Shown here: piece after piece, positions 6,820 through 56,558 of the stretch
Layout: every line of letters starts with the position of its first letter
Position numbering within the stretch: the stretch's first letter is position 1
Virus record (IMG/VR): IMGVR_UViG_3300032239_001501
Span: 101,510-165,509 of that record
DNA: 64,000 bases
Direction: 5' to 3' (one strand)
Source: a virus
Lineage: Duplodnaviria; Caudoviricetes
Position numbers and translations under genes: made by a program
The notes under the pieces: generated by a model
The model's input: only the letters and a program-made list of their open reading frames with translations
What the model was told of the DNA's origin: nothing
Databases searched by the model: none

Positions 6820-8124
6820 TTATTTGGGTCTTGATATTCCCAAACTACCTAAGAAATCATCTAATCCGTCTTCATCTTCATCATCATTTTCGTCAGAATC
6901 AATATCTTTTTCTTCTTTATATTCCTCAAATTCATCTTTCATATTTTGAGCTTCTTTCATAATTTCTTCAAATTTTGAAGTTGCTTTTCTTACTTTAGAG
7001 TCATCTTCAGATATGGCGTTTCCTATAATTGCCAAAAATTCTTGAGCAGGTATTTGGTATAACAAGATATGGAACCAGTTTATTAGACCTTTGTTTGATT
7101 CGTCAAACATTCTGTCGGGTAATGCAAATCTAAGTTTTTCTACAATTTCAGGTCCTATTCTCAATTGCATTGGTTCGTTAGATAATACATCAACAGCACC
7201 TCTAACTTTTTCACGAATATCGGGATTTTTAGAATGTCCATGTCTTCCTTTCGCTTCTTCTAACCCTTTGATTATTTCATGACATAATATTGGGAAAATC
7301 ATTCCTGTTGCAGTAATTTTTGTGTCAGGACTTTCTTCTCCACCTTCACCACCTTCATCTTCATCATCTGAATCACCTAATTCTACTTTACCAGCAATAC
7401 CTTGTCCTGTTTCACTCATCATCTCAATCATTTGTTCCATAGTAAAATACAGGAAATCATTGATTGCCATAATTCCTAAATAATCTCTATATAATGAAGG
7501 GTCAATAGCGTCTAATCTTGCTTTTACTGATGGCTTTTGAAAAAGATAATGACCTTTTTTTGCAGCTCCTTGAATAATAGCATTTATGATATTTCTCTTA
7601 TGTTTTTCTAATTCTAATTCTTCTTCATCAGTTAAATCTTCAATATCAAATGATGGGATTTGAGGGTTTTCATTTTCCTCTTCATCATCTTCTTCATCTT
7701 CAGGTTCTTCAGGATTAAATCTAAAATTAGAAGTATCTGGCATACCCAATTTAGCATCAATCTGATACCAATCTTCAGGTACTTCACCTTCTTCTAAAGA
7801 TGCGTCAACTGCTAATTGTTCAAGTTCTTCTTTATGAGCACTTTCAATTCTCATGATATTAGGAAGTTTTCTCATCATTTCTTGATAAATCATTCCTTGA
7901 ACTTGTTTAGAATCAATATTTTGATTACCTGTAACTTCTTTAAGTTTGTCGGCAACTTTACCAAATCTTTGGCTTATTAATCTTTGAACATCTTGAGTCC
8001 CTTTTTTCATTGCAGGATTTTTTGCATATAAACTTTCAGGGTCTCCTAATTTTCTTTCCAAATTAGGATCCATTCTTTCACGCCTATTTCCGTAATCTAT
8101 TTGTTCTTTTAATTTCTTTGCCAT
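6820..8124 (-). CDS. Acidic hypothetical protein (probably virion/late)
   Basis: 434-aa D/E-rich ORF directly upstream of the terminase. Confidence 0.6.
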   Translation of the reverse strand: MAKKLKEQIDYGNRRERMDPNLERKLGDPESLYAKNPAMKKGTQDVQRLISQRFGKVADKLKEVTGNQNIDSKQVQGMIYQEMMRKLPNIMRIESAHKEELEQLAVDASLEEGEVPEDWYQIDAKLGMPDTSNFRFNPEEPEDEEDDEEENENPQIPSFDIEDLTDEEELELEKHKRNIINAIIQGAAKKGHYLFQKPSVKARLDAIDPSLYRDYLGIMAINDFLYFTMEQMIEMMSETGQGIAGKVELGDSDDEDEGGEGGEESPDTKITATGMIFPILCHEIIKGLEEAKGRHGHSKNPDIREKVRGAVDVLSNEPMQLRIGPEIVEKLRFALPDRMFDESNKGLINWFHILLYQIPAQEFLAIIGNAISEDDSKVRKATSKFEEIMKEAQNMKDEFEEYKEEKDIDSDENDDEDEDGLDDFLGSLGISRPK

Positions 8125-17633: not shown

Positions 17634-18041
17634 GGGGGTGACAGGCTTTGATTTCAGGTATCAAGGATAAGTTGCAAGTAGTCGGATATCATCTACGACT
17701 TTAATTATTGGTGGTAAACATAACAGACGCAACTTTTGCGAAAATGGCTACTCTTGGTTTAACTAGAGAAGCTGTTGTTGTTGGTGCTTAATCTCACAGA
17801 ACAACTACGGGGTTTCCCATACGTACCTTGGAACAGAAATGGTCAAGGTGTAATACCACCCGAAGATGTATTAAGAGTCTCGTTCAGGAGTCTACTCTAA
17901 CACAAGTGAATCCGACACAGTTATTGGTTACGATGTCAAAATAGGAACCATTTATTTGTTTGTTATGAATAACAGAATAAACTTGTAGTAACGTATTGTT
18001 GAACCGGAAAGACCCGGTTTCAATTACCGGCACCTCCACCA
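17634..18041 (+). ncRNA. ssrA: tmRNA
   Basis: Acceptor stem GGGGGUG/CACCUCC with G3-U70, then A73 and CCA; T arm CCGGU-UUCAAUU-ACCGG; tag ORF at 17726-17791 after ATAACA. Confidence 0.93.
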
Positions 18042-30692: not shown

Positions 30693-30862
30693 TAGTCAGG
30701 ACAGGAATCGAACCTGTATGCCATTTGTGGTTTTCTCTTCAATTTACTGTTGCAACAGTACCACAAGCGTTTTGCCACTCCTGTATGATGTCCGCTTACG
30801 TCTATCATACAATATCAACCTTGCGAGTTAATGTGCGCGTCTACCAATTCCGCCACCTGACT
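30693..30862 (-). ncRNA. tRNA-Leu-like shell with a multi-hairpin insert replacing the anticodon/variable arms
   Basis: AGUCAGG/CCUGACU+A acceptor, GCGGAAUUGGUAGACGC D arm, ACAGG-UUCGAUU-CCUGU T arm; 170 nt total. Confidence 0.8.
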
Positions 30863-56167: not shown

Positions 56168-56258
56168 GGAGAGATGGTAGAGTTGGTCTATTGCACCTGA
56201 CTTGAAATCAGGAGGCCTCGTGAGGGGCCCGTGGGTTCGAATCCTACTCTCTCCGCCA
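56168..56258 (+). tRNA. tRNA-Ser(UGA)
   Basis: CCUGA-CUUGAAA-UCAGG anticodon arm, long variable arm, G73 and encoded CCA. Confidence 0.93.
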
Positions 56259-56350
56259 ACTTGGAGTACGAGGAACTAACATAAACGGAGTACTTAACCC
56301 ATAAGTTTATTAAATTAAATTATAAGGTTTCCAGTGAGTTAGTTCAAAAT

Positions 56351-56524
56351 TGCTAGGTGGTGAAATTAGTCATCTCAGTTATGACTTTGGCAAACACCCC
56401 GTCCAGTCCCGACGGCGCGGATAAAGAAATAGATGAGTAATACTGGGGTAGACCACCAGCTTGCAAGCACTTATGTTACTTATTGAATCTCCGTTTATAG
56501 GTTCGACTCCTATTCTAGCAGCCA
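56351..56524 (+). ncRNA. Expanded tRNA-Asp(GUC)-like RNA with D-loop and variable-arm inserts
   Basis: UGCUAGG/UCUAGCA+GCCA acceptor; CCGUC-CAGUCCC-GACGG; AUAGG-UUCGACU-CCUAU; 174 nt. Confidence 0.75.
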
Positions 56525-56528
56525 ATTA

Positions 56529-56558
56529 AACCCCACCCTCATAAGGTGGGTTTTTTTT
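56529..56558 (+). terminator. Intrinsic terminator
   Basis: cccacc...ggtggg hairpin plus T tract. Confidence 0.75.

Follow-up and report, generated by a model that had tools for sequence, protein, structure and literature searches.

What is an oversized tRNA-Asp-like RNA, interrupted by two separate insertions, doing in a phage genome? Such an RNA had been predicted in the window analyzed here, a 64-kb stretch of DNA at the end of an IMG/VR virus record of 165.5 kb, whose completeness is put at about 55%. Direct reading of the sequence, together with comparison across a family of related RNAs, bears this prediction out (Table 1). The RNA has G73 at 56521, an encoded CCA at 56522-56524, and the GUC triplet at 56406-56408, as originally noted, and the perfect AGUCAU/AUGACU hairpin is indeed present in its D loop, where it immediately precedes the conserved GG. 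U8 and G9 sit between the acceptor and D stems, and the anticodon loop reads CAGUCCC, with A33 and C37. The terminator expected after the RNA is likewise in place.

Table 1. Features of the window relevant to the tRNA-Asp-like RNA (positions within the window)
Feature	Position	Strand	Remarks
Phage-encoded tmRNA	17634-18041	+	Rfam RF00023, 77.1 bits, full length
Leu-like tRNA-shaped gene, 170 nt, large interior	30693-30862	-	
tRNA, 101 nt	31562-31662	-	Rfam 43.3 bits; ARAGORN with introns: tRNA-Arg(UCU)
tRNA-Ser(UGA), upstream neighbor	56168-56258	+	ARAGORN; Rfam tRNA 54.6 bits
Conserved upstream motif in 92-nt spacer	56326-56350	+	candidate promoter or processed leader
tRNA-Asp-like RNA gene	56351-56524	+	full cloverleaf, read directly from sequence
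Acceptor stem, 7 bp	56351-56357 with 56514-56520	+	5' strand U1, G2 ...
D arm, 3-bp stem	56360-56362 with 56395-56397	+	whole arm 56360-56397
Enlarged D loop	within 56360-56397	+	holds A14, A15, and conserved GG at 56389-56390
D-loop hairpin insert	56368-56386	+	perfect 6 bp AGUCAU/AUGACU, 56368-56373 with 56381-56386
Anticodon-like arm	56399-56415	+	5-bp stem 56399-56403 with 56411-56415, loop 56404-56410
Variable arm, 78 nt, branched	56417-56494	+	
Invariant arm hairpin motif UGGGGUAGACCACCA	56444-56458	+	core invariant in phage copies
Invariant 10-nt palindrome GCUUGCAAGC	56459-56468	+	83/83 phage copies
T arm	56497-56513	+	UUCGAnU-type loop
Acceptor 3' strand, G73, encoded CCA	56514-56524	+	
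Intrinsic terminator	56532-56558	+	G+C-rich stem 56532-56550, then eight T

ARAGORN makes no call at this element, the Rfam tRNA model does not match it even at E <= 10, and Rfam 15 returned no relevant match at the gathering threshold or at E <= 10. BLAST searches of 50,697 GenBank phage records, with the element and its flanks and with a typical member of the family as queries, recovered no homolog and only a match to tRNA-Ser. A full-text literature search found no description of the family. A 2023 catalogue of viral candidate RNAs lists an entry, DNAVirus_1850, as overlapping one tRNA-Asp call (PMC10690425). We regard the family as uncatalogued, with the proviso that DNAVirus_1850 may be the same family.

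The fold of the window element as a single sequence is unexceptional (z = -0.99), and the proof of structure comes from the family comparison instead. With the 322-aa protein encoded downstream as a query, 40 related viral loci were retrieved, 12 of which carry the element. Searches with an 18-nt arm motif returned at least 120 stretches from viral contigs and at least 120 from metagenome contigs, with 117 and 87, respectively, of the 120 listed in each case being genuine. Viral and metagenome contigs together yielded at least 135 distinct homologs, all of those listed carrying GUC. From these, 83 distinct members were aligned (alignment A1), and a structure of 49 base pairs was tested on the alignment. 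Across the 49 pairs, 97.2% of cells pair, and compensatory changes occur in 31 of them; slid-alignment controls pair at just 41 to 58%, and none of 500 shuffles matches the family's pairing and compensation. The search for homologs and covariation that had been proposed along with the original prediction thus comes out in its favor, and the objection that the helices show no compensatory changes fails.

The covarying pairs span all four tRNA arms, acceptor, D, anticodon, and T, in the 83-member alignment. All cells of the acceptor stem pair (100%), with compensatory changes in five of its seven pairs and with U1-A72 and G2-C71 invariant (83/83). The D stem covaries among GC, AU, and UA types, four of the five anticodon-stem pairs are compensatory, and the T stem covaries as well, its pair 51-63 being UA in 40 and AU in 36 of the 83 members and never G-C. 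U8, G9, A14, A15-U48, G18, T54, U55, C56, and A58 are invariant in the aligned members, and G19 is retained in 82 of 83. The window sequence has every feature of the family as described by R1, the covariance model derived from the alignment of phage copies: U1-A72, G2-C71, G73-C74, a 3-bp D stem, and a YNGUCYC loop, together with an arm in which a 4-bp base leads to two isolated pairs and then to a long helix. Covariation across the family shows that the window RNA is structured and conserved, its tRNA core being complete and its large arm conserved as well.

Once the two insertions have been removed in silico, 81 of the 83 members are recognized by ARAGORN as tRNA-Asp(GUC). The insertions could be taken, on this ground, for introns or mobile inserts whose removal leaves an ordinary 76-nt tRNA-Asp, the more so as inserts occur in other tRNA genes of these phages. 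However, the arm is far below the size of a group I intron and has no Rfam intron match, no bulge-helix-bulge junction could be recognized by eye, and strong purifying and compensatory selection acts on the arm as a helix that runs on from the tRNA core. Moreover, U1-A72 and pyrimidine 37 would persist in the product, which would be redundant with the tRNA-Asp already there. We consider excision of the two inserts extremely improbable.

The variable arm had been described as closed by CGGA/UCCG. After refinement of the arm base by an all-against-all column scan of the alignment, the family-wide closing stem is not CGGA/UCCG but a 4-bp stem (56417-56420 with 56491-56494), beyond which lie two isolated pairs, 56425:56490 and 56432:56489, both covarying and split by conserved A-rich bulges. 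A 10-bp helix (56433-56442 with 56474-56483), in which 8 of 10 pairs are compensatory, then opens into a junction comprising the invariant hairpin and the invariant palindrome. We infer the pairing of this hairpin, since its invariance leaves no room for covariation. The D-loop hairpin behaves differently: among the 135 members listed it is long in 64, short in 29, and absent in 38, its stem covaries where present, and it is confined to phage copies, bacterial copies being without it. The two insertions are hence not equivalent; the variable arm defines the family, and the D-loop hairpin is an optional phage-only add-on. Through the window copy, the family gains a clade characterized by A33, an encoded CCA, and the long form of the D-loop hairpin. 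Two further ideas about the arm were rejected. Folding of its GAC back onto the GUC loop is unsupported and was dropped; both elements are invariant and thus beyond a covariation test, and bacterial copies without that hairpin keep GUC. A hammerhead or standard kink-turn did not fit the arm by eye.

The RNA had also been assigned to an expanded-tRNA class of this phage, as its second member. This grouping is not supported by comparison, as the tRNA-shaped genes at 30693-30862 and 31562-31662 share only tRNA ends with their relatives, differ in their interiors, and do not match the family. It is the ends of the Leu-like gene, not its interior, that match elements of about 115 to 155 nt in other phages (G001 7860-8015 and G003 147578-147692), and its interior palindrome has only the UUGCAA center in common with the Asp-like RNA, with no homology seen. 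The tRNA-Arg(UCU) called by ARAGORN has a 26-nt insert in its anticodon loop. Related jumbo-phage genomes hold further tRNA genes with inserts (G001:C1:246714-246815 and G003:C1:147578-148151), one of which reads amber codons by its CUA anticodon and has an insert of 23 nt, while another is called with a 490-nt intron.

The genomic surroundings place the phage RNAs among tRNA genes. Among the matches listed, a same-strand tRNA lies within 400 nt upstream in 45 of 97 distinct contexts and only 3 to 13 nt upstream in 21 of them; tRNA-Ser(UGA) is the most frequent upstream neighbor (22 of the 97, often 3 to 5 nt off), and seven contexts have a tRNA 5 to 6 nt downstream. C74 is encoded in all 125 members listed and the full CCA in four of the 125, including the window copy; in the ordinary tRNAs of these phages and their hosts, C74 is likewise encoded and a full CCA is rare. 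Residence in tRNA arrays and a C74 encoded like that of other tRNAs in these genomes suggest that the family RNA is handled as a tRNA. In the window, tRNA-Ser(UGA) and the Asp-like RNA are separated by 92 nt, and their cotranscription, which had been assumed at the outset, is plausible and not firmer, because this spacer holds a motif that is conserved across clades and is itself a candidate promoter. The motif also precedes the RNA in phage clades with differing RNA sequences (L070, L085, L121, L140, L152, and L157) and could be the RNA's own phage promoter or a processed leader. Examination of the neighbor genes of viral loci revealed no universal partner gene beside the RNA. In the clade of the window, a 322-aa protein of unassigned function is encoded downstream (34 listed loci), and in another phage clade, represented by 39 listed viral loci (L073, L087, L046, and 36 more), the RNA is followed directly by the gene for a protein of 111 aa and by those for the large terminase (phrog_6681) and portal (phrog_6547). 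Five phage genomes were searched for an AspRS-type enzyme, GatB, and an AsnC-like regulator, and none of these was found.

A family restricted to phages had been hinted at by an exact-motif scan of 185,579 genomes, in which just 2 of 83 matches were genuine, each of them probably a phage contig that had been binned into a MAG. This candidate reading was overturned with covariance model R1, in the building of which bacterial copies were not used. R1 matched over its full length in Paraflavitalea sp. CAU 1676, an isolate genome (L419:1501-1661, 82 bits), as well as in a Chitinophagaceae MAG (78 bits); it further gave strong matches in about 14 of 151 sampled Bacteroidota genomes (68 to 107 bits, 109 to 212 nt), and matches in 23 of 61 sampled genomes (38%) in the order of Paraflavitalea. 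The bacterial copies retain U1-A72, G2-C71, G73-C74, the YNGUCYC loop, A-U at 51-63, and the arm-base motif, and their arms range from about 35 to 135 nt. Most of them also retain the arm hairpin motif at 56444-56458, and the GGGGUUGACCAC hairpin is present in most; they are without the 10-nt palindrome GCUUGCAAGC, whose place is occupied by other hairpins. Genome G143 carries two tandem copies of 109 to 110 nt (L436:1279-1388 and L436:1501-1609) with a simple hairpin arm and with UUC (Glu-type) replacing GUC; to judge from these UUC copies, the family is not strictly Asp-type.

At 10 of 15 bacterial loci, a gene for an AsnC/Lrp-type regulator of 155 aa (PF01037 and PF13404) lies divergently about 150 nt upstream, and within 8 kb on either side of the bacterial loci no other conserved neighbor was found. 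A framing of this RNA as a phage invention is thus not supported, as the family also resides in Bacteroidota chromosomes, adjoining the AsnC/Lrp-type regulator. With the family in bacterial chromosomes, usually beside this divergent gene, the phage copy is most likely a captured host RNA. Separately, a TrmB-family methyltransferase gene (PF02390) was observed just downstream of the RNA at 3 of 13 bacterial loci (L419:2183-2893 on the plus strand, L426/L456, and L463), which may be a coincidence.

Is this RNA, then, a tRNA-Asp at work in translation? G73, G34, U35, C36, and C38 are strong determinants for AspRS (PMC9976931). G34, U35, and C36 are found in 83 of 83 members and C38 and G73 in 82 of 83, and the window copy has all five. 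The adjoining loop positions are in a different state. Across the aligned members, position 32 is C or U; 51 of the 83 have U33, with C33 in 20 and A33 in 12; and only pyrimidines occur at position 37 (69 U and 14 C). The decoding type of loop, with U33 and a purine 37, is replaced by A33 and C37 in the window, and U33 is lost in 32 of the 83. The A33 to which the original prediction drew attention is thus real in the window copy but limited to one clade (12 of 83), and it is pyrimidine 37 that is the family-wide oddity. A second departure lies at the end of the acceptor stem. G1-C72 is strictly conserved and important in bacterial tRNA-Asp (PMC9976931), whereas U1-A72 is found in 83 of 83 family members, so that the RNA might be charged poorly; the phages and hosts concerned have G1-C72 in their canonical tRNA-Asp. 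The third concerns EF-Tu. Binding energies of the T stem, predicted from Table 2 of PMC3239215, are -9.6 to -8.0 kcal/mol for the family (mean, -9.0; n = 103), compared with an average of -11.0 kcal/mol (SD, 0.33) for bacterial tRNA-Asp (PMC3239215) and with predicted values of -10.1 to -10.8 kcal/mol for the canonical tRNA-Asp of the same phages. The T stem of the family is thus predicted to bind EF-Tu weakly.

The genomes in question are also provided with a conventional tRNA-Asp. Three large phage genomes (G001 to G003), with one copy of the element each, carry a normal 75-nt tRNA-Asp with G1-C72, A37, and G51-C63, and a canonical tRNA-Asp accompanies the RNA in host genomes G006, G015, and G071, that of Paraflavitalea reading G1-C72 and A37. 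We take this as evidence that the family RNA is not the working tRNA-Asp of its genomes. The suggestion of a nondecoding or modified role, made when the RNA was first noticed, fits with pyrimidine 37 in 83 of 83 members, a variable position 33, the weak predicted EF-Tu T stem, and the presence of canonical tRNA-Asp.

The opposite view would be that the RNA is a true decoding tRNA-Asp isoacceptor, whose odd loop and arm shield it from a host anticodon nuclease or another tRNA-directed defense or else change the way it decodes, such as through frameshifting at GAY codons. The full tRNA core, the Asp anticodon, and the placement in phage tRNA arrays speak for this, and phage tRNAs with altered anticodon loops that evade tRNA-targeting defenses have been reported. 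Nevertheless, all members have a pyrimidine 37 and 32 of 83 have lost U33, EF-Tu binding is predicted to be 1.4 to 3 kcal/mol weaker than that of tRNA-Asp, the arm is branched and 78 nt long, and a normal tRNA-Asp is already present in the same genomes. Besides, an antidefense tRNA would have no need to be chromosomal in bacteria with a regulator of its own. A decoding function appears quite improbable to us.

Conservation in the arm leads to another view, namely, that the RNA is a tRNA-shaped scaffold in which the arm does the work, as a protein- or RNA-binding element or a small regulator, while the tRNA body provides processing and stability; the RNA would never be aminoacylated, and GUC would be read by a different factor. 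The arm motifs are in fact the most sequence-conserved part, the block 56444-56468 being invariant, and the arm-base motif and a GGGGU(U/A)GACCAC motif are common to phage and host copies. U1-A72 is unlike tRNA-Asp, and CCA is seldom encoded, both in keeping with a scaffold. However, a scaffold would not need exactly the five AspRS determinants to be kept while positions 32, 33, and 37 drift, nor would it need the whole tertiary core and C74. Furthermore, bacterial copies with a short simple arm (109 to 142 nt), which are without the conserved hairpin, still keep the tRNA core and the loop, and the core therefore matters by itself. In our view, a role as a mere scaffold is unlikely, though not negligibly so.

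The invariant U1-A72 and the regulator gene open up a further possibility, in which AspRS loads Asp onto the RNA and GatCAB, selecting U1-A72 and rejecting G1-C72, converts it to Asn on the RNA; the nondecoding features would bar this Asn from Asp codons, and the AsnC-type neighbor would tie the RNA to asparagine supply. Amidotransferases rely on U1-A72 (PMC9976931), which counts for this possibility, as do the invariance of that pair where the ordinary tRNA-Asp of these phages and hosts has G1-C72, the presence of GatB in every RNA-positive genome checked, and the AsnC/Lrp-type regulator adjoining the RNA. Yet, GatB is found in 126 of 151 Bacteroidota regardless, so it is not enriched, and a phage-encoded GatB is lacking in the genomes searched. 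Regulators of the AsnC/Lrp family sense many amino acids, and enlarged D loops are reported antideterminants for GatCAB. Asparagine synthases of the asnB type are found above the curated cutoff in 13 of 15 RNA-positive genomes, and no dependence on the amidation route is evident from this; with asnB-type genes in most RNA-positive genomes and GatB not enriched, the RNA as a sole route to asparagine was rejected. Overall, amidation on this RNA has little probability.

The best explanation of the window element, as far as comparative analysis reaches, is that it is a phage copy of a family of tRNA-shaped noncoding RNAs of Bacteroidota, derived from tRNA-Asp. Because the AspRS determinants and the core are frozen, the decoding and EF-Tu features are lost or degraded, and the RNA has gained an arm bearing invariant motifs, we favor a nonribosomal mimic that is charged by, or otherwise engages, AspRS. 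In this mimic of tRNA-Asp, to which we give about an even chance, the RNA would be processed, probably charged, and kept off the ribosome, with the arm binding a putative partner. We envisage that tRNA processing enzymes would excise the RNA and that its CCA end would be supplied. Host AspRS would then recognize the RNA through G73, GUC, and C38 and probably aspartylate it. Pyrimidine 37, the nonconserved position 33, the T stem with weak predicted affinity for EF-Tu, U1-A72, and the bulky arm would together exclude it from translation. Finally, the invariant arm would dock a putative partner, and the RNA would have its function off the ribosome, where it would either carry an aspartyl group (an asparaginyl group following amidation) or titrate or sense the Asp-charging system. 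In the host, the AsnC/Lrp-type regulator next to the RNA would make its expression responsive to amino acids; in the phage, it would be expressed without this regulator, so that control would be overridden.

Several points weigh against parts of this mimic. AspRS is a class II enzyme and approaches the tRNA from the variable-loop side, and the 78-nt arm might clash with it, which would argue against charging. GUC and C38 could be conserved for a different reader, and, against docking, no partner protein is encoded beside the RNA among the neighbor genes examined in phages. Nor was an enzyme that uses aminoacyl-tRNA identified, in an analysis whose searches did not extend to the Fem, MprF, and L/F-transferase families. 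It is tempting to speculate further that the RNA is a dedicated nondecoding aminoacyl-carrier or sensor RNA, charged by AspRS, excluded from the ribosome, recruiting a partner through its arm, controlled by AsnC/Lrp in Bacteroidota, and captured by many lake phages that thereby override the host circuit; in this complete form, the proposal is tentative, and we think it possible rather than probable.

Charged nondecoding tRNA-shaped RNAs are rare and informative, with cell wall tRNA-Gly and tmRNA as examples. The family described here is large, with at least 135 distinct phage and metagenome sequences and with copies in 38% of the sampled genomes of one bacterial order, and its signature is the retention of Asp identity together with the loss of decoding features and the gain of an invariant structured arm. 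Its pairing with a host regulator and its repeated capture by phages suggest that the aminoacylation machinery and cell physiology are linked in an unrecognized way that is worth hijacking by viruses. Standard tRNA finders and Rfam miss the family entirely, which points to an annotation gap.

Comparison with known systems sets this family apart from each of them. Like canonical bacterial and phage tRNA-Asp(GUC), the family RNAs have the cloverleaf, the tertiary nucleotides, G73, G2-C71, GUC, C38, and a place in tRNA arrays, and most members also have a C32/U33-type loop. They differ from it in U1-A72 instead of G1-C72, a pyrimidine instead of a purine at position 37, the 3-bp D stem, A-U or U-A instead of G-C at 51-63, and an arm of 35 to 135 nt (78 nt here) instead of 4 to 5 nt. 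With class II tRNAs (Leu, Ser, Tyr, and Sec) and allo-tRNAs (PMC5389517) they share a D stem of 3 bp and an extra arm that is helical and leaves the core between positions 44 and 48. However, the extra arms of those tRNAs are simple hairpins of about 10 to 25 nt, whereas that of the family is branched, several times longer, endowed with invariant motifs, and placed on an Asp-type body with a nondecoding loop; in the window, the 78-nt arm forms two hairpins and a complex basal loop on such a body.

In terms of action, the nonproteinogenic cell wall tRNA-Gly of Staphylococcus (PMC7826273) is alike in being charged by the normal synthetase and in coexisting with decoding isoacceptors. It has been flagged as anomalous for a T stem whose predicted affinity for EF-Tu is weak, at -9.5 compared with a class mean of -10.8 (PMC3239215). 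Unlike the family RNA with its giant arm, it is of normal size, and its partners are the Fem transferases. tmRNA, which also occurs in phages, resembles the family in joining a tRNA-like chargeable module to a large extra RNA domain; however, it has no anticodon arm, carries Ala identity (G3-U70), and contains a tag open reading frame and pseudoknots, whereas in the family RNA the anticodon arm is complete and the extra domain stands in for the variable loop. Rfam and ARAGORN both place the tmRNA of the window at 17634-18041 and not at the element. YrlA Y RNA-like mimics (PMC4201824) and viral tRNA-like structures are, like the family, noncoding and tRNA-shaped to engage tRNA enzymes, but YrlA ends in a Ro-binding stem rather than an acceptor stem and has no anticodon loop.
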